NCBI GenBank assembly: GCA_028707275.1
Contig: JAQTUP010000002.1
Coordinates: 59,198-123,197, forward strand
Origin: Gallionella sp.
GTDB taxonomy: Bacteria; Pseudomonadota; Gammaproteobacteria; Burkholderiales; Gallionellaceae
Length of the DNA stretch: 64,000 nt
Direction: 5' to 3'
The notes below the pieces were generated by a model. The model saw nothing but the letters and a program-made list of their open reading frames with translations, searched no databases and was not told where the DNA came from. Position numbers and translations under genes: made by a program. This document shows positions 5,983 through 59,478 of this stretch, in pieces. Position 1 is the stretch's first letter. Every line of letters starts with the position of its first letter.

Positions 5983-7518
5983 CTACAGTTTGTAAGTGCT
6001 GACGCTGTCGCGCAGCCGCTCGGCCACACGGCGCAGGTCTGCCGACGACTGCTTGCTTTGTTGCGCGGTGGTGACAAATTGCGCCGTCACTTTATTGATT
6101 TCTTTCATCGCCAGGGTCACCTGTTCGATGCCGATAAATTTTTGCCGCACTACAGCCGAAATTTGCTGGCTTGCGATGGCCGTTTCACGCACGACTTCAC
6201 CCAACTTGCGCACCACCTCCCCGCTTTTTTGCACCGACAGCATCCCGGCATCCACCCCTTTGCTGCCCTCTTCGGTGGCCATCACTGCGCGATCCGTTGC
6301 ATGCCGTATATCCTGGAGTATCTTTTGCACCTGAGCGGTCGATTGCTGCGATTGCTCCGCCAGCTCACGCACTTCGGCCGCGACGACGGCAAATCCCTTA
6401 CCTGCTTCGCCGGCTTTGGCAGCCTCAATGGAGGCATTGAGCGCCAGCATCTTGGATTGCTGGGCAAGGTTGGTCACGACAGCCGTAATTTCACCGATTT
6501 GCTGTGTCTGCTCGCTGAGCGCCAGTATGGTTTGCGCGATACCTTCGACGCGCTCGCGGATCGCTATCATACCCAAAATAGCCTGTTCTACCGCAACACT
6601 GCCTTGTTCGCTTTCGCGTCTGGCGCGTTCGGCCGACTCCCCTAACACCTGCATTTTCTCCATGGTCTGAGCCGACATGGCCTTGATTTCATCAAGCGAA
6701 GAAGTGGTTTCGTTGACCGCTGCCGCCTGTTCGGAAGCACCGGCCGACTGGCCGTTGATCGACTGCTGCAATTGCTCCAGCGTGCTGTAAATGGTATTGA
6801 TCGCCTCTGTCGTATCCGAGGCCACATGCGCCAGACTTTCTGTCATGCCATTGAGATTACTGCCCAGCTTTGCCAGATCGTCGCTGCCCACCACATCAAG
6901 CCTATGGCTCAAATCGCCCTCGGCCACGCTTGCAATGAAAGTCTGATAGGTCGCCAGTCTGGCCTCAATCTCATCTTTTGACATGCTGACCCCGTTCAGG
7001 TCAGTCATCAAACCATGTATATAGGTATCCATGGACAACTGGGAATCGATGGAGATGATCTTATGCAAGGCTTGCAAAGCCGCCTCCCGCGCACGGGCAT
7101 TCCACCGGTACTGGCGCTGGATCAACTTGACGATCTGGCAACTGTACACACTGTAACTGCCCAAATACCAGCGCGGAGTAAGACCAATTTTGTTGTGGAT
7201 CACACCGATTTTCAACCGCCGTTCAAAATAGGCGTCGCCATAATCTCCATCGAACATTTCCAGCAGATAGCGTTTCTGGGTCGTCTTGAGCCTGTCAATG
7301 TTTGAACCGGCCTCCCCGATGACATTCATCAGTTCGGTATATCGCTCGATATTGGCGTAAAAAGCATCGACAATGACGTCCGAATGCTGCTGGATAAAGG
7401 GACGCAAGGCTTTTAACGCTTGTATGTCCTGATCGCCAAAATCGACAAACTTCTTGCGCGAGGCCTGTTCGTTCGCATCAATACCCATCAACTGGGTCAG
7501 GGACTGGCTAAATTTCAT
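5983..7518 (-). CDS. Soluble globin-coupled methyl-accepting chemotaxis protein (HemAT-like heme-based sensor)
   Basis: It has no TM segments. The N-terminus is a sensor-globin fold (FYANIERYTEL..., LTPRWYLGSY). The C-terminus carries the highly conserved MCP signalling motif (LALNASIEAAKAGEAGKGFAVVAAEVRELAEQS). Confidence 0.85.
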   Translation of the reverse strand: MKFSQSLTQLMGIDANEQASRKKFVDFGDQDIQALKALRPFIQQHSDVIVDAFYANIERYTELMNVIGEAGSNIDRLKTTQKRYLLEMFDGDYGDAYFERRLKIGVIHNKIGLTPRWYLGSYSVYSCQIVKLIQRQYRWNARAREAALQALHKIISIDSQLSMDTYIHGLMTDLNGVSMSKDEIEARLATYQTFIASVAEGDLSHRLDVVGSDDLAKLGSNLNGMTESLAHVASDTTEAINTIYSTLEQLQQSINGQSAGASEQAAAVNETTSSLDEIKAMSAQTMEKMQVLGESAERARRESEQGSVAVEQAILGMIAIRERVEGIAQTILALSEQTQQIGEITAVVTNLAQQSKMLALNASIEAAKAGEAGKGFAVVAAEVRELAEQSQQSTAQVQKILQDIRHATDRAVMATEEGSKGVDAGMLSVQKSGEVVRKLGEVVRETAIASQQISAVVRQKFIGIEQVTLAMKEINKVTAQFVTTAQQSKQSSADLRRVAERLRDSVSTYKL

Positions 7519-11331: not shown

Positions 11332-11452
11332 CCGATGTGACTGCGTCACATCAGTTATGTATTCAAATCAACTTCGCCGGGGGCAGCCCGGCTGCTGGCG
11401 ACTTTCTTTTGTGTCGCCAAAAGAAAGTCGCTAAAGAAAAGGCGCCCCCGGT
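11332..11452. repeat. Truncated copy (5' ~120 bp) of a ~380-bp MITE-like repeat family
   Basis: It shares the terminal palindrome (gatgtgactgcgtcacatcag), the core caaatcaacttcgccgggggcagcc and the hairpin cgactttcttttg-N6-caaaagaaagtcg with the copies at 40900, 52846 and 58093. Confidence 0.6.
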
Positions 11453-15346: not shown

Positions 15347-17278
15347 TCAATATTTCACCTCGTCCTTCCACATCTTTGCTTCAAAACGCACCACGCGGTT
15401 TCTCCCTGCCTCCTTGGCGTGATACATGGCAACATCGGCATATTTTACAGCCTGCCAGAAAGTATCACTGTCCAGCGGAAACTCTGAAATTCCAATGGAG
15501 ATAGTTTTTTGCAGCACTTCGCCGGGCAGCTGCACCTTCATTTTTTCAACGTCGGCGCGTATTTTTTCGGCCACTTTGTCGGTGGCCTCCCCTGTCGAGT
15601 CCTGCATAATCACGAGAAACTCCTCTCCACCATAACGTATCACAAGGTCAGCCGCGCGCACCGATGCCTGTATGGTTCTGGCCAGCGCCTTGAGAACCAG
15701 ATCCCCCGCGTCATGACCGTAGGTATCATTCACCATCTTGAAGTAATCAAGGTCGAGCATCAGCACCGAGAGCTGGCTCTTGCGACGCTGATTGGAAGCT
15801 ACCAGAGTTTCGGCGAATTCTTCCAGAAAACGGCGGTTGTGCAGACCTGTCATGGCATCGGTCAGATTGGAGGCGCGCAACGTATCCATCAGCCGCTTGG
15901 CCTCAATGACGGGTGCGGCTTCGCGCAAATAAACATTCAGATAGGGTAGAAATTCATGGATGCGTTCACCATCGTCCCGATGTGAGACCAGTTGCAGCAC
16001 GCTACCCACCATGCCCGACTGAATAATCGGAATACACACATGCACACGATCAGCCCCATCACGGTCAGATTGAAAGGCGTAACAGATTCCGGGCACGTTG
16101 ATCGAATCGATGATGTGCCCGGTGCGCCGGGCGCGACAACTTTCAGCATGAAGCAGAATTTGTGGGTCGCACCAGCGACAGGGGGCATCGATCTCGCCAT
16201 CTACCACCAGGGGCGCCATTCGACTGGTGCCCGTCACCATTTCATAGATCGAAAAATCATGGATAGCGAAGCGTTCCTGCAAAACCGATGACAGTCGCCG
16301 GTATATTTCCGGCTTGGTTTCATCCTCTTCGATCGCCTGCTTGAAATGCGCGGCCTCAATCAGTCCGGCGACGCGACTGATCGTGGAATTGAGCAAATTC
16401 TCATGCTCGTGTGTCGGCGTTTGCTGCAAAAGTTGTGCGACATCCTGGCTGATGGTTGTCAGTCCATTTTGAATGAATTTCAGCAGACTGTTCAAGTCCG
16501 CCGCAACCTGCCCTATTTCATCATCGGTACGTCGCTCGATATTGGCATGAAAATCCCCCTGAATGGCGCGTTCAACGGTCTCCTGCACATCGCGCGCGGT
16601 GACGATCACAGGTTTGACCAGCCGCCGGAAAAACCACAGCATCACCAGCATAAACGAAACGATTGCCAGCACCATGACAGACGAAGTCATGTAGGCACTG
16701 CGCATCATCTCGCTCATGGACATCGTAATCGTAATCACGCCCAGCACTGTCCCTTCCGCTACATTGTGGCATTGCAGGCAGTTGATATGTCCGGCACGAG
16801 TGGCAATATAGGGCAGCGTGCCGCGAAAGGCCAGTCCGTCGTTTTCGTCGATCAGTTTATAGTAAGCCTGTCCGTCCTGCATGACCTGCGCCTCAATTTT
16901 GTCCCTGATTTGAACTCGTTTCGAGTCCTTGCCAAACTGTGCGGCAACGCTGTCAGAGCGGATCACCCTGACTGTACGCATTCCTTCCACAGAGGCCAGA
17001 TGACCCAGAAAATCATCCCGATTTTCTGCAGAATTGTGCAGCATGGATTCACTAAGACTGATGCCGACAATATCGGCAATTGAACGGATATGCTCACGCT
17101 CGGTTGTAATGGTGAATTGGCGAAATGACAGAAAACTCACCACCACGACGACCACGATCATGGACAGGGTTATTACAATGGAAAAGGTCGTAACTTTGGT
17201 ATCGAGTTTCATTCTGGCAACCCTAAAAAGTCTTTTTGAATTAACTCTGACGTATTGTGACATAACAGATGGCTGCAT
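15347..17278 (-). CDS. Membrane sensor diguanylate cyclase with a periplasmic CxxCH (heme c) motif, HAMP, a Cys-rich cytoplasmic domain and GGDEF
   Basis: Two TM helices bracket a ~140-aa periplasmic domain containing CLQCH. The cytoplasmic part has HAMP and a GGDEF domain (RYGGEEFLVIM). The start codon is uncertain, and an internal Met at 17212 is possible. Confidence 0.8.
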   Translation of the reverse strand: MQPSVMSQYVRVNSKRLFRVARMKLDTKVTTFSIVITLSMIVVVVVVSFLSFRQFTITTEREHIRSIADIVGISLSESMLHNSAENRDDFLGHLASVEGMRTVRVIRSDSVAAQFGKDSKRVQIRDKIEAQVMQDGQAYYKLIDENDGLAFRGTLPYIATRAGHINCLQCHNVAEGTVLGVITITMSMSEMMRSAYMTSSVMVLAIVSFMLVMLWFFRRLVKPVIVTARDVQETVERAIQGDFHANIERRTDDEIGQVAADLNSLLKFIQNGLTTISQDVAQLLQQTPTHEHENLLNSTISRVAGLIEAAHFKQAIEEDETKPEIYRRLSSVLQERFAIHDFSIYEMVTGTSRMAPLVVDGEIDAPCRWCDPQILLHAESCRARRTGHIIDSINVPGICYAFQSDRDGADRVHVCIPIIQSGMVGSVLQLVSHRDDGERIHEFLPYLNVYLREAAPVIEAKRLMDTLRASNLTDAMTGLHNRRFLEEFAETLVASNQRRKSQLSVLMLDLDYFKMVNDTYGHDAGDLVLKALARTIQASVRAADLVIRYGGEEFLVIMQDSTGEATDKVAEKIRADVEKMKVQLPGEVLQKTISIGISEFPLDSDTFWQAVKYADVAMYHAKEAGRNRVVRFEAKMWKDEVKY

Positions 17279-18375: not shown

Positions 18376-18414
18376 CACATCTGAACAGGTGGTATGGCCG
18401 GACACATACATCGC

Positions 18415-18510
18415 CACTTCCTTTCTAAATCCTTCATTCCAAAACGACATGACTTTGTCGGGCTACGCCGACTGCAAGCAAAGGTATTTTGTCCATGCCG
18501 ACAATCATTC
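18415..18510. repeat. Copy 1 of a ~95-nt intergenic repeat (second copy at 27625-27725)
   Basis: About 80% identity to 27625-27725 (ccttcattccaaa...gtcgggctacgcc.acgacaagg.aaaggtattttg...gcaatcat), including a conserved palindrome gtcgggctacgccgac. Confidence 0.4.
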
Positions 18511-19026
18511 TGTCGGAGATATTGGCGAGACTTGCCCCAGCTTCTTCTGCCAGAACATCGCCTTGCCCATCTTGGGATCAAGTTCGTATCCGGCAAAGCC
18601 GCTGGCCTTGTATGCCGCTTGCGCCAGAGTATTGCCCTCCAGCACTTCCAGCGTGAGCTTGCAGCAGCCAAGGCGTAGCGCGATTTCTTCTGCCTTGGCA
18701 AGCAAGCGCTTGGAAATGCCGCGCCCCCGGTATCGGCTCGCCACAATGATGTCGTGAATGTTCAGCAGCGGTTTGCACGCGAAGGTTGAAAATCCTTCAA
18801 AGCAAACCGCCATGCCAGCGGGCGATCCATCCACGAAGGCGAGTACGAGATGCACGCCTTGCCGTTTGCGCAATTCGGTAACGAGATTGTCTTTCACGAA
18901 TTCCGGCAATTCCGCCCCGCCGCCCATGTCGTCTTTGGCATACTCATTCAGCAGATAAACGATGGCCGATGCGTGGGTTGGCAACGACAGGTCAGCGCTG
19001 ATTATTTCTTCTGCGCCAATCAGCAT
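18505..19026 (-). CDS. GNAT family N-acetyltransferase
   Basis: A 173-aa protein with acetyl-CoA binding motif A (IVASRYRGRGISKRLL). Confidence 0.75.
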   Translation of the reverse strand: MLIGAEEIISADLSLPTHASAIVYLLNEYAKDDMGGGAELPEFVKDNLVTELRKRQGVHLVLAFVDGSPAGMAVCFEGFSTFACKPLLNIHDIIVASRYRGRGISKRLLAKAEEIALRLGCCKLTLEVLEGNTLAQAAYKASGFAGYELDPKMGKAMFWQKKLGQVSPISPTE

Positions 19027-19865: not shown

Positions 19866-20000
19866 GGTGTTTCATTTACCCGGCCAGATGAACTCCACCC
19901 GAATGCCGCTCGGCTCAAGACACATCATGTGTTTCGCAGGTCCCGCCCCAGTAGTTCCATCCCCTTTTCAAACGCATTGCCGCTCCTGAAGGCGCGCTCC
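19866..20000 (-). pseudogene. Frameshifted 3' remnant of a VOC/glyoxalase-family gene (paralog of 25433-25834)
   Basis: The reverse strand translates to ...ELLGRDL / KHMMCLEPSGIRVEFIWPGK*, which matches the C-terminus of the intact VOC gene (KHMMCYEPSGIRVEFTWPGN*). Roughly 75% nucleotide identity over about 70 nt. Confidence 0.5.
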
Positions 20001-20042: not shown

Positions 20043-20160
20043 CTGATGTTACGCAGTAACATCCGTCGTGCAATCAACTTCGCCGATGGCAGACCGGCGG
20101 CTGGTTACTGGCACCGCCAAAGTAACTGCCTGCCTGCGGCGGGCAGGCCGATCTGCGCCC
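20043..20160. repeat. Truncated copy (5' ~110 bp) of the MITE-like repeat family
   Basis: It begins with the palindrome ctgatgttacgcagtaacatc, followed by caatcaacttcgccg and a ggctggttactg...caaagtaac hairpin homologous to the copy at 52846. Confidence 0.5.
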
Positions 20161-20163
20161 TGC

Positions 20164-21018
20164 CTATGCGGCAAACCGCCTTGCCCCGAGTACGCATAGC
20201 GCGACCGCCAGCGCGGAGGCGACCATCATCGCGCTGACGTGTTCGCCCAGCAGCAGCGCTGCCAGACCCAGCCCGAAAAACGGTTGCAGCAATTGCAACT
20301 GGCTGATAGCCGCAATACCGCCGAGTGCCAGACCGCGATACCAGAAGAAAAATCCGATCAACATGCTGAACAGCGAGACGTAACCCAAGCCCAGCCAGGC
20401 GGACAAGGGAGCTTGTTGAAGATTGCCCGGCAGCGTCCACAGGCACAGCGGCAACATCAACGGCAACGCTAGTACCAGCGCCCAGCAGATGACCTGCCAT
20501 CCGCCCATGCGGCGCGCCAGACGCGCGCCCTCGGCATAACCCAGGCCGCACACGATCACCGCGACCAACATCAGCAGATCGTCGAACAAGGAAACGCCGA
20601 TACTCTGCCCCATCGCAAAACCTGCCACGACCAGACTTCCCGACAAGGAAAACAGCCAGAACAAACCGCGCGGGTTTTTATCGCCGTGCAACACACCGAA
20701 CATCACCGTCGCCACCGGCAACAACCCGACGAACACCGTGGCATGCGCCGCACTCACATGACGCAACGCCAGCGCGAGCAACAGCGGGAAACCCACCACC
20801 ACGCCAAGCGCCACCACCAGCAACGCGCGGCTGTCGCGGCGAGCTGGCTTTGGCTGGCGCAGAGCCAGCAGGATCAACGCGGCGAGCACCCCGGCAATCG
20901 CCGCCCGCGCCAACGTAAAAAAGATCGGATCGAACGTGGCGACCGCCACACGGGTAGCGGGCAACGTGCCGCTGAAAATCAGCACGCCCAGCAGTCCGCA
21001 GCTCCATCCCCTGAGTCC
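20164..21018 (-). CDS. EamA/DMT family transporter; the start codon is uncertain, possibly GTG
   Basis: Ten predicted TM helices with EamA-like repeats. The annotated long ORF runs upstream through GC-rich palindromic repeats (translated LALPLQGGG x2), which are probably non-coding. Confidence 0.65.
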   Translation of the reverse strand, partial: GLRGWSCGLLGVLIFSGTLPATRVAVATFDPIFFTLARAAIAGVLAALILLALRQPKPARRDSRALLVVALGVVVGFPLLLALALRHVSAAHATVFVGLLPVATVMFGVLHGDKNPRGLFWLFSLSGSLVVAGFAMGQSIGVSLFDDLLMLVAVIVCGLGYAEGARLARRMGGWQVICWALVLALPLMLPLCLWTLPGNLQQAPLSAWLGLGYVSLFSMLIGFFFWYRGLALGGIAAISQLQLLQPFFGLGLAALLLGEHVSAMMVASALAVALCVLGARRFAA

Positions 21019-25432: not shown

Positions 25433-25834
25433 TCAATTCCCCGGCCAAGTGAACTCGACACGGATCCCGCTCGGTTCATAACACATCATGTGTTTCGTCG
25501 GCCCCTTGCCCAGCAGTTCAGGTGCAAACTCGATGGGCGTGCCGTTGTTCAGCAGCGTGGCATGGATGCGATTCAGATCTGCTTCGCTTTCGACCTGGAA
25601 GGCGACATGGTGCAGGCCTGTATTCCTGTCTTTGTCGAACGATGAGCCGGGTTCTTTTCTGATCGCCCAGAGCGTGACCATGGTCTTGCCGTCGCTGACA
25701 TAGATGGCAGGGTATTCAGGGTTCCTGCGCACTTCTTTCCAGCCCAGCAGGGTGATGAAGAAGTGCGCGCTTTCTTCCAGTTTGCTCACGGTAAGACCGA
25801 GGTGGTGTATGCCTTTGGTGACCGGGGTGTTCAT
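25433..25834 (-). CDS. VOC family protein (glyoxalase/bleomycin resistance/dioxygenase fold)
   Basis: A ~134-aa protein (GIHHLGLTVSKLEESAHFF...GLHHVAFQVES). Its start overlaps the isochorismatase-family stop by 4 nt. Confidence 0.75.
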   Translation of the reverse strand: MNTPVTKGIHHLGLTVSKLEESAHFFITLLGWKEVRRNPEYPAIYVSDGKTMVTLWAIRKEPGSSFDKDRNTGLHHVAFQVESEADLNRIHATLLNNGTPIEFAPELLGKGPTKHMMCYEPSGIRVEFTWPGN

Positions 25835-27624: not shown

Positions 27625-27725
27625 CCTCCCTCTTACTTTTTCAATCCTTCATTCCAAACTGGCATTACTTTATCGGGCTACGCCAACGACAAGGAAAGGT
27701 ATTTTGACCAGGTCTGCAATCATCC
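27625..27725. repeat. Copy 2 of the ~95-nt intergenic repeat (see 18415-18510)
   Basis: Alignment to 18415-18510 at about 80% identity. Confidence 0.4.
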
Positions 27726-27879
27726 TGAGTTCAAAAAGCAAGCCACGTAATTACACTGATTATCACGGATAATCAAAAAATTAACTCGAACTCACCATCA
27801 CCTTTTTGATGATGGAACGAAAACTTATAACTTGATGTTTTATCTGATTTTATCCGCGCCCATATGTGGCGCAGAGTTT

Positions 27880-31015: not shown

Positions 31016-31088
31016 GCCGCCATAGCTCAGTCTGGTAGAGCACCGGGTAAAACCGGGCGTCGCGGGTTCGAATCCCGCTGGCGGCGCC
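31016..31088 (+). ncRNA. tRNA-like element with canonical acceptor, D and T arms but a shortened anticodon arm (4-bp stem, 6-nt loop GUAAAA); tRNA mimic or tRNA pseudogene
   Basis: GCCGCCA/TGGCGGC acceptor, GCTC-AGTCTGGTA-GAGC D-arm, GCGGG-TTCGAAT-CCCGC T-arm. The anticodon arm is 14 nt (CCGG-GTAAAA-CCGG) rather than 17. There is no encoded CCA. It abuts the next element with no spacer. Confidence 0.45.
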
Positions 31089-31162
31089 TTCGCTATAGCT
31101 CAGCCGGGTAGAGCGCTGAACTCATACTTCAGTTGTCGCCGGTTCGATTCCGGCTAGTGAAA
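31089..31162 (+). tRNA. tRNA-Met/Ile2-like (anticodon CAU) with an unusual U1-A72 first pair and a G4-U69 wobble
   Basis: A full cloverleaf: acceptor TTCGCTA/TAGTGAA, D-arm GCTC-AGCCGGGTA-GAGC, anticodon arm CTGAA-CTCATAC-TTCAG (CAU, A37), T-arm GCCGG-TTCGATT-CCGGC. Confidence 0.5.
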
Positions 31163-31414
31163 CTACCCTGTCACGGTAGTTGTAGAAAAGCATGACACCG
31201 GCAAGTCTCCCGGTGAAAGGTGTAATAAAACCGGGGCGTAACAGCAACACCCAAACCTCGATTTCTGCACACCCGACATCAGCCCGGAGGTTGCCTTGTA
31301 GCAAGGTTAGACGTGCGCGCGATTGGCTTCAGGCAGCTTGCCCGCACGCCACGACGTTATAAGCCGACAAACGGGCGGAGGCTTGCCACTTTAATTATGC
31401 AGAAGGGACGCATC

Positions 31415-32753: not shown

Positions 32754-32798
32754 TGGCAGGAACGAGCAGACTCGAACTGCGGACCCCTTGGATGTCGA
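32754..32798. repeat. 45-nt direct repeat of the tRNA-Val 3' end (distal attachment-site-like boundary of a genomic island)
   Basis: The sequence tggcaggaacgagcagactcgaactgcggaccccttggatgtcga matches 37937-37981, the 3' part of the intact tRNA-Val, at 43 of 45 positions. Confidence 0.7.
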
Positions 32799-34340: not shown

Positions 34341-35363
34341 TTAAGCTATGTACTCGACTTCACTTACAGCTGGACGGCGCTGCCCCGGTTTTGCCTTTGC
34401 TTTTTCTTCTGCTTTTACCTTGCTTATTGGTGCTTTCCCCGTCTCTGATTCAGATTCTGTTTCTGATTTTTCTTTTTTTCCGGCGCGAGGATATTTGTCC
34501 AGAATCATTGCGCCTCCGCCGATTGCGGTTCGATACACGACGTCAGGCGTCACGTTTTTCAACGACTGGTGCGGACGTCTGACGTTGTAAAAGTCAAAGT
34601 ACTCCGTCAGCCCGATCATCAGTTCGACCATCGTGGAATAGCCCTTCAGATAGACATCCTCATGCTTGACGCTGCGCCAGAGCCGCTCAACGCAGAGCCG
34701 CTCAACGAAGATGTTGTCGAAGGCTCGCCCCTGGCCATCCATGCTAATGACGATCCCCTCCCTTTGCAAAACACCTGTAAAGGCCTCGCTGGTGAACTGC
34801 GAGCCCTGGTCGCTGTTGAAGATCTCCGGCTTGCCATGGGCGCGAATAGCCTCTTCAAGGCAATCGACGCAAAACGTCGCATCCATGCTGTTGCTGATTC
34901 GCCAGCCGAGCACGCGCCGAGAGTACCAGTCGATAATCGCCACCAGGTACACGAAGCCTCGCGGCAACCGGAGATAGGTGATATCCGTACTCCAGACCTG
35001 GTTCGGCCTGACCACCGCAACCCCGCGCAGCAGATAGGGATAGACCTTGTGCTCAGGGTGCGCGCGACTGGTGTTCGGCCCCGGCGCAATAGCCGCCAAA
35101 CCCATTGCCTGCATCAAGCGTTGTACCCGTTTTCGATTGACGATGTGTCCTGCGGTCTTGAGAAAAATCACCATCTTGCGGCTGCCGTAAAACGGATGGA
35201 GGGTATATTCTTCGTCAATCAGGCGGCTGTGCAACAGGTCAAGCTCGTCCAGCGGCTTCGGCTTTTGATGCGCATAGATGGTGGCTCGCGATACCGCCGA
35301 CAGCCGACATTGCTGCGCTACGCTCATCGTGTCCGCATGCGTAACCCATGCTTGCCGCATCAT
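34341..35363 (-). CDS. IS3-family transposase OrfB (DDE integrase core)
   Basis: The rve domain is present (WSTDITYL...DWYSRRVLGW...HGKPEIFNSDQGSQFTS). Confidence 0.85.
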   Translation of the reverse strand: MMRQAWVTHADTMSVAQQCRLSAVSRATIYAHQKPKPLDELDLLHSRLIDEEYTLHPFYGSRKMVIFLKTAGHIVNRKRVQRLMQAMGLAAIAPGPNTSRAHPEHKVYPYLLRGVAVVRPNQVWSTDITYLRLPRGFVYLVAIIDWYSRRVLGWRISNSMDATFCVDCLEEAIRAHGKPEIFNSDQGSQFTSEAFTGVLQREGIVISMDGQGRAFDNIFVERLCVERLWRSVKHEDVYLKGYSTMVELMIGLTEYFDFYNVRRPHQSLKNVTPDVVYRTAIGGGAMILDKYPRAGKKEKSETESESETGKAPISKVKAEEKAKAKPGQRRPAVSEVEYIA

Positions 35364-35659
35364 GACAGGCTGATCCCAGACTTTTTTTTGAGCCAGTCCA
35401 GTTCCACCTTCAGTTTGCCAATCTCGCTGTACAGCAATTCTGGTTCCTTATACGCGGCCACCGGTTTGGGGCCGCGCTTGCCTTCAAACAGCGTCTTGGC
35501 CTGATCCTGGATCTCCTTCTTCCACAAACCTACTTGCGCCGGATGAACGCCGTACTCCAGACCAATCTGATTGACCGTCTTCGTTCCTCGAATTGCTTCA
35601 AGACCCACCTTCGCCTTAAGTTCCGGCGTGTGGAACTGCCGCTGCTTTGATTCGCTCAT
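35360..35659 (-). CDS. IS3-family transposase OrfA (HTH)
   Basis: A 99-aa protein with an HTH and a leucine-zipper tail (KLKVELDWLKKK). Its end is at the frameshift site. Confidence 0.8.
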   Translation of the reverse strand: MSESKQRQFHTPELKAKVGLEAIRGTKTVNQIGLEYGVHPAQVGLWKKEIQDQAKTLFEGKRGPKPVAAYKEPELLYSEIGKLKVELDWLKKKSGISLS

Positions 35660-35752: not shown

Positions 35753-37600
35753 TTAAGCCGCCCAAATTAAGCGACATAGTTCGAAAAGCAATTTTTGCCT
35801 GTCTTCCAACTCTTCTTTCCCAAATTTATCCATTGCCCGAAAAGTAAGCCCATGAGCATCGGAAAAACCAGCAAAATCTAATTTACTTTTATAACTATCC
35901 TCACGAAGTGTCTCATTCCAATACAGAGTATTGGAATAGGATTTTAGTTTTGCCGAATATATCTCGTTATTGCTGGATTGATTGTCCCGGCCCTTTAACA
36001 GTAATACACCACCAAGACGATTACGCTCTTGCTCGAAACGCTCCTCATCTCCATCAAACAGAGCTAAATTTTCAGCATTACGCGAAAGGATATGTTCGAC
36101 ATGAAAACCGTTTTTCGCACCGCGTAAAGTTACCAAATCCTTTAACTCATGCTTCATTTTCAACTTCATTCCATCGGCGAGGAGACGTTCTACTCTTCCA
36201 AATAGATATCGAACGAAACGGGTATTCAAACGGTCAATCGACATTTGACGGAATAGCGGATAACCGAACGCATTGCCAATAGGAATTGCTCTTCGCTCTG
36301 CCAGCTCCGCAATCAGGTGTGTCTCAATAATTGCAGAAATATCTGCGGCGGGTTTTTCCCTAATCTCAATACTAATGTCGTACAGACGAGATGCAAATTC
36401 ATTTGAATCGTATCCGCCTTGTATCTGCAAAAGCGAGAACATCCTGTCAAGCCCTGCCGAAACGGCATGGATTTTTTCAACCTCCTCTGGGTCATTAACG
36501 GCACATGCCGAAATGATGAGCATAAACTGGGTGTCCAACTCGTTGAGGTTGTTGAAATAGACTGCTGGGTATGCCGAATTCACCTGCGTTGTGGCACTCC
36601 ACAAACGAGCATACAAACTGGTGAAATATTTAAACGCACCATTCAGGAACAACTTAACTTCACCCGTGTTGTGATCAAGCTTCAATGACGCGTTTATATC
36701 GGATTTGAACATCTCACGGTGGTAATCACCATCGAAACGCTGTCCAGATTTTTTGTTGCTAGCAAACTTTGCTTTCAGCCAGTAACGAAAGAAGCTATCG
36801 ATTTCATCTCCCCTGAATGAATTGACTGCTTGTAGCTGATTTTCCCAGAGTTCGTTGAACTTACCGCTATCAAGTTCAATCTTATCAATCTGCCCAAGCA
36901 ATTTTCCTTTCAGAATTTCATAAGGTTTGAGTCGAACACCTCTGTCATTGATAACCTCAAATACCATTGGCACATGATTGGTTTCTACGGACAGGTTTAT
37001 CAAAACCAAGCGGAATAAAAAATAATGAACAAATGTATCAAATTGATGCAACGAGCCCAACCGTTTATCTAATTCCAAACTTATTAATTGATAATTTTTA
37101 ACCATATTGGCAGCAGTAATGCCCGTACTAATGTTTATCCCCGATGGATCACTGCCCGCCATCAAAGCTTCAAGTACAAGCCTATGCTTCACATGGTTCA
37201 TCCAGAACTCATGCTCAGTGCCTGAGTACCCTGAAATTTTTCGCTCTATCCAACCTGCTGTTTTTGAGCCCAGCAATTTTGCTTTGGTTAACAGACTAAA
37301 CAGAATCAGCGTCAAGGTTGTTAACCTTTGTTGACCATCAACCACAAATACCCGACCGCCTACTGTGTTAGTCACATAAGTATTGAGGTAGTACCACGGG
37401 TAGCGAGAATTAATATTCTCCTTGTTCGGCTCCAAGGAAGAGAATTTCTTGTAAGCATCATCAAATTGATAAAATACATCATCAAGAAGCCGTTTGACTG
37501 GCTCCTCAGTCCATTTGTAATCTCGTTGATAAAAATCTATGAAATAGACTGTTGTTGAAAAGGTTTGATCTAAATTCTGTTTGTCTGGCTGAATTTCCAC
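35753..37600 (-). CDS. GmrSD-like type IV (modification-dependent) restriction endonuclease: DUF262 (ParB-like NTPase, DGQQR) plus DUF1524 (HNH-like)
   Basis: The N-terminal FVVDGQQRLTTL motif and the C-terminal HNH-like FHVEHILSRN...N...N motif are present. GC is very low, about 36%. Confidence 0.75.
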   Translation of the reverse strand: MEIQPDKQNLDQTFSTTVYFIDFYQRDYKWTEEPVKRLLDDVFYQFDDAYKKFSSLEPNKENINSRYPWYYLNTYVTNTVGGRVFVVDGQQRLTTLTLILFSLLTKAKLLGSKTAGWIERKISGYSGTEHEFWMNHVKHRLVLEALMAGSDPSGINISTGITAANMVKNYQLISLELDKRLGSLHQFDTFVHYFLFRLVLINLSVETNHVPMVFEVINDRGVRLKPYEILKGKLLGQIDKIELDSGKFNELWENQLQAVNSFRGDEIDSFFRYWLKAKFASNKKSGQRFDGDYHREMFKSDINASLKLDHNTGEVKLFLNGAFKYFTSLYARLWSATTQVNSAYPAVYFNNLNELDTQFMLIISACAVNDPEEVEKIHAVSAGLDRMFSLLQIQGGYDSNEFASRLYDISIEIREKPAADISAIIETHLIAELAERRAIPIGNAFGYPLFRQMSIDRLNTRFVRYLFGRVERLLADGMKLKMKHELKDLVTLRGAKNGFHVEHILSRNAENLALFDGDEERFEQERNRLGGVLLLKGRDNQSSNNEIYSAKLKSYSNTLYWNETLREDSYKSKLDFAGFSDAHGLTFRAMDKFGKEELEDRQKLLFELCRLIWAA

Positions 37601-37936: not shown

Positions 37937-38013
37937 TGGTAGGAACGAGCAGACTCGAACTGCTGACCCCTTGGATGTCGACCAAGTGCTCTAACCAACT
38001 GAGCTACGCTCCT
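37937..38013 (-). tRNA. tRNA-Val (anticodon GAC), CCA encoded
   Basis: The reverse complement, AGGAGCGTAGCTCAGTTGGTTAGAGCACTTGGTCGACATCCAAGGGGTCAGCAGTTCGAGTCTGCTCGTTCCTACCA, folds as a canonical cloverleaf with GAC in the anticodon loop. Confidence 0.9.
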
Positions 38014-40794: not shown

Positions 40795-40899
40795 TACATC
40801 TCCTTGTGGTTATGAAAGCCCCCTGCCATGCGAGACAGTGGAGCAAGGCTGTTTTGGCCGACTATCGGCCCAACAGGGGCGCGGATTATATATGAATGA

Positions 40900-41278
40900 C
40901 AGATATTACGCCATCAGTTATTCAGATAAATCAACTTCGCCGGGGGCAGCCCTGTCTGCCGACAGGCAGGCCGACGGCTGGTCACTTTCTTTTGTGTCGC
41001 CAAAAGAAAGTAATCCAAGAAAAGGCGACCCCGGTTTGCCGCGCCGCCAGGCTGCCAGCAGTCAGGCGGTGTACCCTCGGTAGTCGCAAACAAGCGGAGC
41101 TGCGCAACTCGCACGAACCGCACAGCGGCCACGCGCTCAAACAGTGCTCGCCTAACCCCACCGCTTGTTTGCGGCTATCTTCGGCGGCGCACAGGGGCTG
41201 TGAGTGACGCGCAACCCGCCTTAAAACAGATCTGATGACTCATCAAGCCTGATTTTTAGAGCGTGTGCGTAACATCAG
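40900..41278. repeat. Full-length (~380 bp) copy of the MITE-like repeat family
   Basis: It contains the caaatcaacttcgccgggggcagcc core, the cgactttcttttg/caaaagaaagt hairpin, the long cagcaaacaa...ttgtttgc inverted repeat and the terminal gcgtaacatcag. It is colinear with the copies at 52846-53202 and 58093-58500. Confidence 0.7.
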
Positions 41279-41490
41279 TGAATAACAAAAAATCAATCAC
41301 CAATTGCAGGCAGACAATGGTAAGCGCCAGACAGCCTCATGCAAACCCGCACAACCTCACAGGAACAGGCAACTGATTTCAAGGGGGAGAAGTAAAGAGA
41401 AGGCCTGACAGGTCAGGCAGGTCAGATATGCAGAACGCGCGAACTGAACAATGCTAAAGAAGCAATCTGCACGCGAAACATCAATTTGAC

Positions 41491-52211: not shown

Positions 52212-52832
52212 ATGACCGCATTCATTTTCATCCTGCTGTGGGTCACGGGCACAGCACAGGCGGCACCAGCCGCTAAAACGGTGCAAACCGCAAAAAACAT
52301 TCTGATATTCGGGGACAGCCTGTCAGCAGGATATGGCATAGACTCCACGCAAAGCTGGCCTGGCCTGTTACAGCAGGAACTCGACAAAAACCGTATCGGA
52401 TTTAAAGTGCTCAATGCCAGCATCAGCGGCGAGACCTCCCTGGGAGGCAGGCTGCGCATTACAAAATTACTGGAGCAATACCAGCCTAGCATCGTTGTCG
52501 TGGAACTCGGCGCCAACGATGGCCTGCGCGGATTCAGCACGGCAGACATCGAAGACAATCTGAATGAGATTCTGGTACAAATCAACCAGCTGGGCGCTAA
52601 AAGGTTGTTGATCGGCATGAAACTTCCGCCCAATTACGGTGAACCCTACATCACTCAGTTTCAAAGCGTCTTTCCCCGCCTCGCGGCTAAGCACAGGATC
52701 AGCCTGCTGCCCTACCTTTTGGAAGGCGTGACAGCCGACCAATTTCAGGCCGACAACCTGCACCCCACCGCCGCCTCACAACCGCAAATCATGCGCAACG
52801 TGCTGCAAGCCTTAAAACCGCTGCTGCGATGA
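52212..52832 (+). CDS. tesA: GDSL-family thioesterase/arylesterase (TesA-like), secreted
   Basis: A signal peptide is followed by GDSLSAGYG and the C-terminal DxxH catalytic pair (DNLHPT). It is divergent from ybbA, as in E. coli. The exact start is uncertain, and 52164 is also possible. Confidence 0.8.
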   Translation: MTAFIFILLWVTGTAQAAPAAKTVQTAKNILIFGDSLSAGYGIDSTQSWPGLLQQELDKNRIGFKVLNASISGETSLGGRLRITKLLEQYQPSIVVVELGANDGLRGFSTADIEDNLNEILVQINQLGAKRLLIGMKLPPNYGEPYITQFQSVFPRLAAKHRISLLPYLLEGVTADQFQADNLHPTAASQPQIMRNVLQALKPLLR

Positions 52833-52845
52833 CCTGAAACAGGAT

Positions 52846-53202
52846 CTGATGTGACGCAGTCACAATCAGTCCTGTGTTCAAATCAACTTCGCCGGGGGCA
52901 GCCCGGCTGCTGGTTACTTTTTCTTGTATCGCCAAGAAAAAGTAACCCAAAAGAAGGCGACCCCGGTTTGCCGCGCCGCCAAGCTGCCAGGCGGCGTTCC
53001 CTTGATACTCAGCAAACAACGGGGCTGCGGAACTCGCACGATCCGCACAGCGCCCACGTGCTCAAACAGTCCTCGCCCAAAAGCGCCGTTGTCTGCTGAC
53101 TATCTTCGGCAGCGCACAGGGGTTGTAGGTGGAGCGCCAGGGTTACTTCTCAAAATAACTCATCAACCCTGATTTTTAGAGCTTGTGCGTAATATCAATC
53201 AG
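52846..53202. repeat. Full-length copy of the MITE-like repeat family
   Basis: It begins with the palindrome ctgatgtgacgcagtcaca and is colinear with 40900-41278 at roughly 85% identity. Confidence 0.7.
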
Positions 53203-53234
53203 GACTCAGGAAACTGAAAACTGAAAACCGGCAC

Positions 53235-54176
53235 TTATCGCAGCGTGATTTTGCTCTGGGTTGAAAAACCGGTCGCACTCATGACACCCGCGCCGAAGCG
53301 TTTTGCCAGCCGGTCAGCAAAACCTTCCTTCACGGTGAAGTCCACCACTTCTTCGGCCTTGATCACATCGCGCGCCACCGATTCCACACTGCCATAGCCG
53401 TCTGCCAGCCCCATCATTACACCCGCCTGACCATTCCAGACCAGACCGCTGAAGGTATCCGGCGTTTCCTTAAGACGCTTGCCGCGCCCGGTTCTCACCA
53501 CATCGATGAACTGCTGGTGTATCTGGGCCAGCATTTGTTTGGCATATTCCTGCTGGTCGGGACGCATCGTCGAGAAGGGATCCATGAACCCCTTGTTGGC
53601 ACCCGCAGTCACCAGGCGGCGTTCCACGCCCAGTTTTTCCATCGTTCCGGTAAAGCCGAAGCCATCCATCAACACGCCGATGGAACCGATCAGACTGGCC
53701 TTGTCCACAAAAATCTTGTCGGCGGCGACCGCCACATAATAACCGCCGGACGCGCAGACATCGTCAACCACCACATACAGGGGAATCGCCGGATACTTGA
53801 CGCGCAAACGACGAATCTCGTCGTTGATTTGCCCGGCCTGCACAGGACTGCCGCCCGGACTGTTGATACGCAGGATCACCCCTTGCGTTCCCTTATCCTT
53901 GAAGGCTTCTTGCAAACTCGGAATCAGATTGTCGGCGCTGGCCGCACTATCGGATGAAATCACGCCCTGCATATCCACCAGGGCTGTGTGTCGGCCGGTG
54001 CTCAAAGGAGTTTCGCTCTTGCCTGTCCACCCCATGACGACAAACAGGATGATAAAAAGGTAGCCGAAGGTCAGCACCTTGAAGAAAATACCCCAGTGCC
54101 GCGCACGACGCTGCTCCTGAATCGCCGACATCGCCAACTTCTCCAGCACATCGCGTTCCCAATTTTGCTCTGCCAT
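53235..54176 (-). CDS. sppA: Signal peptide peptidase SppA (S49, 36K type)
   Basis: An N-terminal TM helix and the S49 catalytic Ser/Lys region are present (INSPGGSPVQAG...GSIG). Confidence 0.85.
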   Translation of the reverse strand: MAEQNWERDVLEKLAMSAIQEQRRARHWGIFFKVLTFGYLFIILFVVMGWTGKSETPLSTGRHTALVDMQGVISSDSAASADNLIPSLQEAFKDKGTQGVILRINSPGGSPVQAGQINDEIRRLRVKYPAIPLYVVVDDVCASGGYYVAVAADKIFVDKASLIGSIGVLMDGFGFTGTMEKLGVERRLVTAGANKGFMDPFSTMRPDQQEYAKQMLAQIHQQFIDVVRTGRGKRLKETPDTFSGLVWNGQAGVMMGLADGYGSVESVARDVIKAEEVVDFTVKEGFADRLAKRFGAGVMSATGFSTQSKITLR

Positions 54177-57891: not shown

Positions 57892-58089
57892 ATGCACATA
57901 AACGAAGCGCAGGATAAAAGAAGAAGCGAAACCATAGGCGAGTTATCCGCATTGCTTTTGCTCGCACAAGAAACAGGGAGCCGTCTGGCCTGCGAAACAC
58001 ACGAAGACACCTACGATCTGGTGCAGGAACTCAACCAGCTCCTGCACCAATCCCGCGTAAAACTGGAACTGATACGAAAATTAAAATAA
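57892..58089 (+). CDS. Small hypothetical protein (65 aa)
   Basis: An isolated ORF in an AT-richer intergenic region. No family recognised. Weak support. Confidence 0.3.
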   Translation: MHINEAQDKRRSETIGELSALLLLAQETGSRLACETHEDTYDLVQELNQLLHQSRVKLELIRKLK

Positions 58090-58092
58090 CCT

Positions 58093-58500
58093 CACTGATG
58101 TTACGCACAAGCTTCAAAAATCAGAGGGGTGATAAGTTTTTTGAAAGATAACCTTGGCGCTTCACCTCAAGCCCCTGCGAGCCGCCGAGGATAGCCAGCA
58201 AACAACGGTGCTTTTGGGCGAGGACTGTTTGAGCACGTGGACGCATAGCGGATCGTGCGAGTTCCGCCGCCCCGTTGTTTGCTGACTGTCGAGGGCACCC
58301 CCGCCTGCATGCCCTGTCTGCCGACAGGCAGGCGCAGGTAGGGTCGGCGGGAGCGGCAAGCCGGGGTCGCTTTTTCTTTAGCGACTTTCTTTTGGCGACT
58401 CAAAAGAAAGTCGCCAGCAGCCGGCCTGCCTGTCGGCAGACAGGGCTGCCCCCGGCGAAGTTGATTTTGATACACGACTGATGTGACTCGGTAACATCAG
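58093..58500. repeat. Full-length copy of the MITE-like repeat family, inverted orientation
   Basis: Its reverse complement is colinear with 52846-53202 and 40900-41278. The terminal palindromes are cactgatgttacgca and gactcggtaacatcag. Confidence 0.7.
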
Positions 58501-58518
58501 TCGCCTCAATTTTGCCCC

Positions 58519-59478
58519 TTACGCAGGCGTTTCGTCCAATCTCGCAATAAAACTCGCCAGCTCCGGCGGCAGCGGGGCGCTGATATGCATCGCCTCCCCG
58601 GTTAACGGATGGGTGAACGCGATACTTTGGGCATGCAAAAACATGCGTTTTAGCCCCCGCTTCATCAGCTCACGGTTGCGTGCAAAATCGCCATACTTGT
58701 CGTCCCCGGCAATCGGGAAGCCCAGATGCGACAGATGAACCCGTATCTGATGGGTGCGACCGGTTTTTAACTGCGCCTCCAGCAGGCTGAATGCGGGCAG
58801 AGCGGTTGCGGGCCAGTTCTTTTGCAGCGTGAAAATGGTGTGCGAGGCCTGACCGCCTTCGCGGACGGTCACGCGCTTCTCGCCCTCAGGGGTATCGAAT
58901 TTATGCAGCGGCAATTTGACATGCTGCTTGACGTTCAGCCATTTTCCCAACACCAGCGCGAGATAACGCTTGTCGCTGTTGCCCTCCCTCATGATCTCGT
59001 GCATCGCCGTGAGCGCTGAACGCTTTTTCGCCAGCAGCAACACGCCTGAGGTCTCCCTATCCAGCCTGTGCACCAGTTCCAGAAATTTGGCCTGCGGTCG
59101 CGCCCGGCGCATTTGTTCGATCACGCCAAAGCTCACCCCGCTGCCGCCGTGCACGGCCAGACCAGATGGTTTGTTAATTACCAGCAGCGCGTCATCTTCA
59201 TAGATGATGGGCAATTCCAGCGCAGGAATGTAGACCTCGCTCACTTCCTGTTTTTGTGCGACGCGCACAGGCGGGATGCGCAACAAATCGCCCAGTTTGA
59301 GGCGATAGGTCTGATCGACACGTTTCTTGTTGACCCGCACTTCTCCTCGCAAAATGCGGTAAATATGGCTCTTGGGCACGCCTTTCAAGTGGCGAAACAG
59401 GAAGTTGTCGATACGCTGTTCTTCCCCACTTTCGTCGATTGTCAGGAAAGTCACAGATTCTTTGCTTAAACTATTCAT
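58519..59478 (-). CDS. rluC: 23S rRNA pseudouridine synthase RluC (RluA family, S4 domain)
   Basis: The S4 N-terminus and the catalytic HRLDRETSG motif are present. It is divergent from rne, as in E. coli. Confidence 0.9.
   Translation of the reverse strand: MNSLSKESVTFLTIDESGEEQRIDNFLFRHLKGVPKSHIYRILRGEVRVNKKRVDQTYRLKLGDLLRIPPVRVAQKQEVSEVYIPALELPIIYEDDALLVINKPSGLAVHGGSGVSFGVIEQMRRARPQAKFLELVHRLDRETSGVLLLAKKRSALTAMHEIMREGNSDKRYLALVLGKWLNVKQHVKLPLHKFDTPEGEKRVTVREGGQASHTIFTLQKNWPATALPAFSLLEAQLKTGRTHQIRVHLSHLGFPIAGDDKYGDFARNRELMKRGLKRMFLHAQSIAFTHPLTGEAMHISAPLPPELASFIARLDETPA

Follow-up and report, generated by a model that had tools for sequence, protein, structure and literature searches.

Copies of the element in the window

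What kind of element is the repeat of approximately 350 to 400 bp that recurs between the genes of the 64,000-nt stretch of Gallionella sp. DNA analyzed here (the window)? The original prediction, made from the letters of this DNA, named two alternatives, a nonautonomous transposable element and structured small RNAs that form a family, and both hold at once. The element is a composite: a new MITE (miniature inverted-repeat transposable element) whose cargo is an uncatalogued, widespread, RNA-like module that is pseudoknotted and bears the signature of a triple helix. The first alternative is borne out by inverted repeats and by target duplications of approximately 8 bp. The second is borne out by extensive covariation, a pair of pseudoknots, and the signature of base triples, which indicate selection on a single-stranded fold. 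Three aspects had been missed: the structured core can be separated from the transposon ends and is much more widely distributed than these, the strand that probably folds is the complement of the one used in the original prediction, and the A-rich tract beside the hairpin appears to belong to a pseudoknot with a triple helix. The copies are listed below with the strand of the inferred RNA; the written strand is the one used in the original prediction.

40900 to 41278, minus strand: full copy A of the MITE, flanked by a tRNA-Leu/Cys/Gly/Gly cluster (minus) and rpsF (minus)
52846 to 53198, minus strand: full copy B of the MITE, flanked by a GDSL lipase gene (plus, ends at 52832) and an S49 peptidase gene (minus, ends at 53235)
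58095 to 58500, plus strand: full copy C of the MITE, inverted relative to copies A and B, with a small plus-strand open reading frame (ORF) on one side and a pseudouridine synthase gene (minus, ends at 58519) on the other
11332 to 11452, minus strand: truncated copy, downstream of a GGDEF response-regulator gene (minus, ends at 11545)
20043 to approximately 20126, minus strand: truncated, degenerate copy, which touches the stop codon of an EamA transporter gene (minus, ends at 20164)

The five copies were recovered by a repeat search and BLAST of the window. All of those predicted (three full and two truncated in 64 kb) are present within 2 to 4 nt of the positions given for them, and every one is intergenic, as had been proposed. 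The boundaries of copy A and of the 11332 copy were retained, whereas copy B (52846 to 53202) now ends at 53198, the inverted copy C (58093 to 58500) starts at 58095, and the copy placed at 20043 to 20160 is degenerate and extends to approximately 20126. A search with nhmmer, using a profile of 39 family members, returned these five matches only in the window, with E values from 6e-62 to 6e-6. The 11332 copy retains the left-end palindrome, the 3' pseudoknot, and the pseudoknot with the putative triple helix and stops exactly at the boundary of the closing stem; in the 20043 copy, the left-end palindrome is retained, the 5' box is mutated, and most of the hairpin is deleted.

The full copies are 353 to 406 bp long and noncoding, as indels between them disrupt every reading frame. 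The element nevertheless produces spurious ORF calls (P0001 to P0005), for which Pfam and NCBIfam searches gave no match; a protein-database search with one of them returned 5 unnamed matches. The paralogues in the window are mutually 72 to 79% identical and are no nearer to each other than to the copies in other species, so the insertions are old. The degenerate target duplications also indicate age; the paralogues nonetheless differ by compensatory changes.

Terminal inverted repeats and target duplications

In a contig from a metagenome-assembled genome of Gallionella sp. (L002), the element carries perfect 13-bp inverted repeats (CTGATGTTACGCA...TGCGTAACATCAG, 13/13) and is bordered by a perfect 8-bp direct repeat (TCAATTAA, 8/8). 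In a third organism (L138 to L147), the L138 copy has inverted repeats that match at 12/13 positions and a duplication (TGAAAAAA/TGAATCAA) that matches at 6/8. The inverted repeats of the window copies match at 11/13 positions in copy C and 10/13 in copy B and are degenerate in copy A. At two or fewer mismatches, eight occurrences of the terminal motif TGCGTAACATCAG were counted in the window, against 1.6 expected by chance, and 0/100 shuffles reached 8. The ends and target duplications are located as follows.

52846 to 52858: left terminal inverted repeat of copy B, CTGATGTGACGCA (equivalents at 40900 to 40912, degenerate, and 58488 to 58500)
53186 to 53198: right terminal inverted repeat of copy B, TGCGTAATATCAA (equivalents at 41266 to 41278 and at 58095 to 58107, TGCGTAACATCAG)
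52839 to 52845 and 53199 to 53206: target duplication of copy B, ACAGGAT and TCAGGACT, 6/7 with a 1-nt shift
40893 to 40899 and 41279 to 41285: target duplication of copy A, TGAATGA and TGAATAA, 6/7 with a 1-nt shift
58501 to 58508 and 58087 to 58094: target duplication of copy C, TGAGGCGA and TGAGGTTA (read on the minus strand), 6/8

By our own calculation, the probability of a target match of at least 6/8 by chance is approximately 0.004 per copy. The left end bears a second inverted half-site (52859 to 52869 in copy B), which produces a palindrome of 23 to 24 bp and accounts for the palindrome that had been reported at the start of every copy. That palindrome is present in all of them, but it is degenerate in the 40900 copy (CAGATATTACGCC------ATCAG). 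Because of its inverted repeats and target-site duplications, the element is classified as a true MITE, an assignment that we make with high confidence, and the moved unit is a cut-and-paste MITE of approximately 360 to 410 bp, both here and in at least two related organisms. Its transposase would act in trans and would be encoded outside the window, in which the sole transposase belongs to an IS3-family element (34341 to 35659) whose ends are unrelated to those of the MITE.

Fold of the structured core

The interior of the element is a core of approximately 250 nt that spans AAATCAACTTCGCCGGGGGCAGCC to GGCGGCGCACAGGGG. Its structure was modeled with RNAalifold and by inspection, and the model was tested by counting pairs against controls in which the partner strand was slid. 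The parts in copy B, all on the minus strand, are as follows.

52880 to 53122: conserved structured core (equivalents at 40928 to 41197 and 58172 to 58467)
52891 to 52912: second, compact H-type pseudoknot, with GCCGG (52891 to 52895) paired with CCGGC (52903 to 52907) and CAGC (52899 to 52902) paired with GCTG (52909 to 52912)
52913 to 52961: H-type pseudoknot with the putative triple helix, with hairpin arms at 52913 to 52926 and 52933 to 52946
52928 to 52933 with 52956 to 52961: pseudoknot helix between the hairpin loop and the distal strand
52962 to 52974 with 53108 to 53122: closing stem of the multihelix domain
52975 to 52995: short variable hairpin inside the closing stem
52999 to 53022 with 53086 to 53104: arms of the long stem around the junction
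53023 to 53077: invariant junction, reading GGCTGCGGAACTCG, a variable hairpin (53037 to 53060), and CTCAAACAGTCCTCGCC on the plus strand

In the complement orientation (41 sequences), 88.2% of the cells are paired, against 37 to 49% in the slid controls, and 46 pairs are changed on both sides, against 17 to 22; the well-aligned helices are 96 to 99.7% paired. The written orientation (39 sequences) gives 87.2% against 36 to 47%, with 47 two-sided pairs against 17 to 22. The 13-bp hairpin that had been described as shared by all copies exists, but its sequence is not constant, as compensatory changes separate GGTTACTTTTTCTTG/CAAGAAAAAGTAACC in the 52846 copy from GGCGACTTTCTTTTG/CAAAAGAAAGTCGCT in the 58095 copy. 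The same is true of the long inverted repeat, whose sequence varies among the copies through compensatory changes; the long stem differs wholly in sequence among members (e.g., L008, L003, and the window) and retains its pairing. The junction segments GCG[G/C]AAC and CAGT[C/G]CTC covary perfectly (pair 193-247 is CG in 20 sequences and GC in 19), and the variable hairpin enclosed between them occurs in 111 distinct sequences. On the RNA strand, the junction reads GGCGAGSACUGUYYGAG-hairpin-CGAGUUSCGCAGCC. A hammerhead ribozyme was rejected, as CUGUYYGAG...CGAGUU is incompatible with CUGANGA...GAAA.

Both pseudoknots covary. The hairpin of the larger one is a polypyrimidine/polypurine helix of 14 to 15 bp whose loop pairs with a segment 22 nt away, and four of the five pairs in this loop-to-distal helix have two-sided changes (UCGCC/GGCGA, UUGCC/GGCAA, CGGCC/GGCCG, and UGGAC/GUCCA). 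The second is a compact knot of 4 and 5 bp (UAGC-U-GCCGG-GCUA-CCC-CCGGC), both stems of which covary. The core is thus quite probably under selection for a single-stranded fold with pseudoknots, most likely that of an RNA.

A 20-nt palindromic mini-insert (CCTGTCTGCCGACAGGCAGG, 20/20 identical) was observed at 40951 to 40970, 58425 to 58444 (minus strand), and 58313 to 58332. It occupies the same site in copies A and C, in loop 2 of the 3' pseudoknot, and also the tip of the variable hairpin in copy C. The two copies that host these identical inserts are only approximately 74% identical to each other, a pattern suggestive of gene conversion, or of a nested mini-insertion, at sites that the fold tolerates.

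Triple-helix signature

A purine tract separates the hairpin of the larger pseudoknot from the distal strand. This tract varies among members, is complementary to nothing, and mirrors the hairpin's purine arm, with which it changes. In copy B, this third strand is located as follows.

52948 to 52955: putative third strand, UUCUUUUG on the RNA strand, mirroring the purine arm AAGAAAAA

At least seven consecutive mirrored positions are found in 35/40 distinct haplotypes, against 15% when arms and tracts are recombined across haplotypes, and the mirror covariation is present in 10/12 arm types. Examples of arm and tract are AAAAGAAAG/AAAGAAAA, AAGAGAAAG/AAAGAGAA, AGGAAAAG/AAAAGGA, AAAGAAAG/AAAGAAA, and, in copy B, AAGAAAAAG/AAAAGAA; the asymmetric variants, with the arms AAGAAAAAG, AAGAGAAAG, and AGGAAAAG, obey the mirror rule as well. 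Interruptions of the arm by T go with C in the tract, or G•U-A when the RNA strand is read. Pairing of the A-rich tract in Watson-Crick fashion was rejected as impossible for the asymmetric haplotypes, and copying by a polymerase is unable to generate mirror symmetry.

On the complement strand, the rule becomes U•A-U, C+•G-C, and G•U-A, with a third strand parallel to the purine strand, i.e., a pyrimidine-motif triple helix, and the tract becomes loop 1 of the H-type pseudoknot, running through the deep (major) groove of stem 2. Eight triples plus approximately 6 bp bridged across the deep groove would add up to the 14-bp stem, which by analogy fits pseudoknot geometry. As read from the sequences, the triple helix and its strand assignment are fairly probable.

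Strand that folds

Because A·C mismatches far exceed G·U pairs in the written orientation and folding energies agree, the folded strand is taken to be the complement of the written one. Setting aside one near-invariant pair at a helix end, 86 A·C or C·A mismatches against 27 G·U pairs were counted in the written orientation, and on the flipped strand, U·G is found at one hairpin position in 16/41 sequences. The complement strand is calculated to be more stable in 44/46 cores, by a mean of 8.7 kcal/mol, and in 77 junction hairpins against 25. The third strand lies as loop 1 in the major groove only if the complement strand folds, and in two members with a mismatched hairpin (L111 and L126), its match to the complement strand's purine arm persists. 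The folded molecule is most likely the RNA 5'-CCCCUGUGCG...GUUGAUUU-3', encoded on the minus strand for the copies at 40900, 52846, 11332, and 20043 and on the plus strand for that at 58095.

The same symmetry might instead be read at the DNA level, with the purine mirror repeat forming H-DNA and the palindromes forming cruciforms that affect supercoiling, replication, or recombination. AAAAGAAAG-TAACC-AAAGAAAA is indeed a textbook mirror repeat of the H-DNA type, and long perfect palindromes are present. However, the covariation between the hairpin loop and the distal strand is meaningless in duplex DNA, the asymmetry between A·C and G·U mismatches is strong, and the mismatches and bulges in many stems are ill suited to cruciform extrusion, which makes a DNA-level structure extremely unlikely.

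Distribution of the core

The members of the family are not limited to the copies in the window; many more were found elsewhere. A scan for the 5' box in one genome per GTDB species gave 11 loci, mostly in Gallionellaceae, Nitrosomonadales, and other Betaproteobacteria, and at nearly all of these loci the core lacks the inverted repeats and lies in unrelated flanks. The junction motif AACTCG-N15-45-CTCRRACAGTSCTCGCC was found in at least 120 metagenome stretches, some of them from AT-rich organisms that carry the stem-and-junction module alone. The hairpin domain alone was matched in BLAST searches of plasmids, in Ralstonia, Variovorax, and Ilyobacter, and it is unannotated in all of them; Ralstonia megaplasmids hold two inverted copies between cobalamin genes, and the domain also occurs on a Variovorax chromid and in Ilyobacter polytropus (Fusobacteria). 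A viral origin was rejected, as IMG/VR contigs gave 0 matches for the 5' box and 2 for the junction motif.

No catalogued family matched the element among those compared (Rfam 15, REP/BIME, Correia, and IS200/IS605). Searches of Rfam 15 with gathering and E-value thresholds, covering the window and 21 loci, returned no relevant match to the element; above threshold, only tRNAs, a 16S fragment, and an SAH riboswitch were found, and the matches of the element itself were miRNA-type hairpins at chance level. Its scores against HEARO, IS605-orfB, SAM-II, and the Betaproteobacteria toxic small RNA in Rfam 15 were not near threshold. Literature searches with sequence strings gave chance matches only, and those by keyword gave only the paper on BRE (PMC3110155). 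As shown by comparative analysis of the sequences, the core is a widespread, uncatalogued family of interspersed modules.

This distribution bears on whether the element is purely selfish, with hairpins that serve transposition as folded single-stranded DNA for the transposase, or that are inherited from a few master copies, and with no RNA or host function. Inverted repeats and target duplications are present, no promoter was detected at the copies, the orientation bias is weak outside the window, and single-stranded DNA also tolerates G·T wobbles, so that strand asymmetry alone is no proof of RNA. On the other hand, many genomes carry the core in unrelated flanks and lack these inverted repeats around it, approximately 250 nt of internal pseudoknotted structure is unnecessary for a cut-and-paste element with inverted repeats, two pseudoknots and the base-triple rule covary, and the fold is kept in diverged paralogues whose ends have decayed. 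We therefore regard a purely selfish MITE as unlikely.

Among the genes around approximately 130 loci, no conserved neighbor (transposase, reverse transcriptase, TnpB, or IscB) was found; the neighbors are housekeeping genes, and those that recur encode ArgJ, XerD, RlmI-like, DUF815 ATPase, and Bug proteins. The RNA might be the partner of an enzyme encoded elsewhere, either the template or scaffold of a reverse transcriptase or an omega-type guide of IS200/IS605, as a triple-helix pseudoknot with a distal junction recalls telomerase RNA and the three truncated copies seen all retain the 3' domain of the RNA. Such a partnership is very unlikely in view of the housekeeping genes that adjoin these loci, the lack of HEARO or IS605-orfB matches in Rfam, the inverted repeats and target duplications, which indicate DNA transposition, and the IS3-family transposase of the window, whose ends are unrelated.

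A broader reading is that the core represents a new, multiphylum class of structured noncoding RNA with a dedicated function that hitchhikes in different mobile shells. Such a class would be defined by a triple-helix pseudoknot resembling those of telomerase RNA or ENE, a second pseudoknot, and an invariant junction resembling a K-turn or T-loop. Its function would be, for example, the protection or insulation of 3' ends or a partnership with a protein encoded elsewhere, and it would have escaped cataloguing because it is repeat-like. We put this reading forward tentatively, as a possibility that falls short of even odds.

Inverted pairs of family members are frequent (L006 3488 to 3760, L008 5292 to 5879, L104, and L134 710 to 1140). 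In L006, an additional copy of the 5' box borders the core in inverted orientation; other lineages may thus have a different arrangement that resembles inverted repeats. Hairpins that resemble REPs and have a GTAGG head (GTAGGGTGGGCAnnnnTGCCCACC; GTAGGTTGGGTTAGC...GTAACCCAAC) adjoin many members in other Betaproteobacteria (L003, L004, L008, L070, L080, L131, and others), which suggests shared intergenic hot spots or comobilization.

Genomic context and proposed function

On the presumed RNA strand, a transcription unit lies directly upstream of each of the five copies in the window, as listed below.

Copy A (40900): tRNA-Leu/Cys/Gly/Gly cluster
Copy B (52846): S49 peptidase gene
Copy C (58095): small plus-strand ORF
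11332 copy: GGDEF response-regulator gene
20043 copy: EamA transporter gene

In the metagenome loci, for which crude gene calls were used, the elements favor the 3' ends of genes and avoid divergent promoters; in the written orientation, the left gene points to the element in 28/38 cases and the right gene in 13/22. The copies would be transcribed by read-through from the upstream gene as part of its 3' untranslated region. The mechanically stable block that the triple helix and the pseudoknots would form on the 3' side of the RNA would resist 3'-to-5' exonucleases and/or insulate transcript ends, and each insertion would gain a selectable effect from this 3'-end barrier. Such an effect would explain why the fold is kept by compensatory changes in old, diverged paralogues. 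This specific role as a 3'-end stabilizer or insulator, proposed by analogy, is rather doubtful.

Independently transcribed, trans-acting small RNA genes that became trapped in a MITE in this lineage are a further candidate. The unit of approximately 250 nt is discrete, sharp-edged, and conserved across genera, and the invariant junction hints at a common protein or ligand partner. This origin is distinctly unlikely, given that there is no conserved promoter-like sequence upstream on either strand and no intrinsic terminator with an adjacent U-tract, and that the copies are numerous in a genome (three full ones in 64 kb) and sit tight against gene ends. The terminator-like hits in our scans are internal hairpins of the element, and the matches resembling sigma-54 promoters that were seen by eye are not conserved between copies.

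The account as a whole, in which the MITE, the RNA fold, the triple helix, and the 3'-end role are taken together, is on balance probable, and several observations weigh against it. No autonomous element sharing the inverted repeats was found, and the window holds no further instance of them. No empty site was recovered, because the region upstream of rpsF is rearranged in all relatives fetched and the relatives of RpsF carry different upstream neighbors. The triple helix has covariation as its one line of evidence, and one pair is G·U in 36/39 sequences in the "wrong" (written) orientation. Scans for sigma-70 promoters and canonical terminators at the copies gave none. The crude gene calls of the metagenome loci reveal no clear strand preference, and the copy in the AT-rich L059 lies between two genes on the opposite strand. 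Finally, the role as a stabilizer or insulator is argued from analogy with REP, ERIC, Correia, and ENE-type triple helices.

The insertion of copy A adjoins the promoter of rpsF. In related Gallionella, this promoter consists of TTGACx, a spacer of 17 nt, and TATAAT (L148 to L155, positions 1870 to 2000). In the window (40795 to 40912), the homology with these promoters ends at the -10 box, 8 nt upstream of which the MITE has its left end; the ancestral -35 box has thus been lost. The RpsF of the window is 96% identical to that of G. capsiferriformans ES-2 and 100% identical to "30S ribosomal protein S6 [Gallionella sp.]." Each of the relatives fetched has different genes upstream of rpsF. An ENA contig with identical RpsF-RpsR-RplI (L012; k141_1802829, 1422 bp) stops 89 bp upstream of rpsF, just before the MITE, which indicates that short-read assemblies are broken by the repeat. 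In practical terms, the element breaks assemblies, yields spurious ORFs, and can rewire promoters, as the displacement of the rpsF -35 box by copy A illustrates.

Comparison with known systems

The bacterial MITEs (Correia/NEMIS of Neisseria, RUP, Nezha, and ERIC-like families) are likewise small and noncoding, carry inverted repeats and target duplications, and are dispersed intergenically, often at gene ends. Their hairpins, when cotranscribed, can influence the fate of mRNA. To our knowledge, the inverted repeat CTGATGTTACGCA and the 8-bp duplication match no bacterial MITE family. The interior of the present element differs from the simple long hairpin of those families in that it is a multihelix fold of approximately 250 nt with two pseudoknots that is found across genera and also outside the shell. 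Correia/NEMIS has a 26-bp inverted repeat (TATAGCGGATTAACAAAAATCAGGAC) and a TA duplication and was rejected in view of the 8-bp duplication and of the inverted repeat CTGATGTTACGCA found here.

The REP/BIME/REPIN families are also intergenic, are enriched at the 3' ends of genes, and have covarying hairpins. REPs, however, are single hairpins of 20 to 40 nt with a GTAG head that are mobilized by RAYT, whereas the element described here is ten times larger and has inverted repeats and target duplications. An assignment to REP/BIME was rejected, as the unit is 350 to 400 bp without a GTAG head and the REP-like sequences are separate neighbors in other genomes.

BRE is a Betaproteobacterial repeat of approximately 90 bp (75 to 91 bp) that is often tandem, GC rich, intergenic, and partly transcribed (Hot et al. 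2011, PMC3110155); its hosts are Bordetella, Polaromonas, Delftia, Acidovorax, and other Betaproteobacteria (PMC3110155), and one published copy spans 3605317 to 3605401 in B. pertussis Tohama I. The GC-rich subfamily of the present element (L001, L004, and L010) occurs in organisms akin to the hosts of BRE, and its junction domain is flanked by direct repeats approximately 90 nt apart. BRE may be the junction domain of this subfamily, as judged from a comparison by description.

The triple-helix pseudoknots of telomerase RNA, SAM-II, and preQ1-II and the ENEs of PAN, MALAT1, and plant and fungal transposons likewise have a helix whose major groove holds a U-rich strand, which is parallel to the purine strand and forms U•A-U and C+•G-C triples; in the pseudoknots, loop 1 is the strand in question. 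Elements of the ENE type shield the 3' ends of RNAs, and some of them reside in transposable elements. Our element has no sequence relation to these riboswitches, telomerase RNA, or ENEs; it does not lie upstream of metabolic genes, and it has no poly(A) partner and no telomerase. It also differs in being bacterial, multicopy, and located at the 3' ends of genes and in its attachment to a second pseudoknot and to a long stem that the junction caps.

The omega and HEARO RNAs of IS200/IS605 (IscB/TnpB) are likewise multicopy, pseudoknotted RNAs of approximately 200 to 300 nt on mobile DNA, often without a protein gene. Inverted repeats and target duplications are both missing from IS200/IS605 elements but present here, and no TnpA, TnpB, or IscB gene flanks the approximately 130 loci; an omega RNA was rejected on these grounds.

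Interspersed bacterial repeats are usually dismissed as simple hairpins, whereas this element has a fold of the complexity of a riboswitch or telomerase RNA, which is maintained in old paralogues and across genera and whose modules extend to other phyla. Should the fold act as RNA, it would add a rare bacterial example to the triple-helix elements at mRNA 3' ends, show clearly how a mobile element can hand a ready-made RNA module to many genes, and constitute a family absent from Rfam.

Other features of the window

The 3' half of tRNA-Val is present as a 45-nt direct repeat (96% identical) at 32754 to 32798 and 37937 to 38013, 5.1 kb from the gene. Between the two lie an IS3-family insertion sequence (orfA, 35360 to 35659; orfB, 34341 to 35363), the gene for a GmrSD-type restriction endonuclease (35753 to 37600), and a DUF3368 protein, and the interval looks like a small defense islet integrated at tRNA-Val. 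A tRNA whose anticodon was left undetermined by ARAGORN and Rfam (31016 to 31088) is located immediately upstream of tRNA-Met (31089 to 31163). Three pairs of direct repeats (18414 to 18512 and 27629 to 27727, 19872 to 19944 and 25433 to 25505, and 7334 to 7378 and 16524 to 16568) are 45 to 99 nt long, 76 to 81% identical, and 5.6 to 9.2 kb apart. These pairs suggest paralogous segments of genes or regulatory DNA. Genes for GGDEF proteins, response regulators, and chemotaxis receptors abound in the region.

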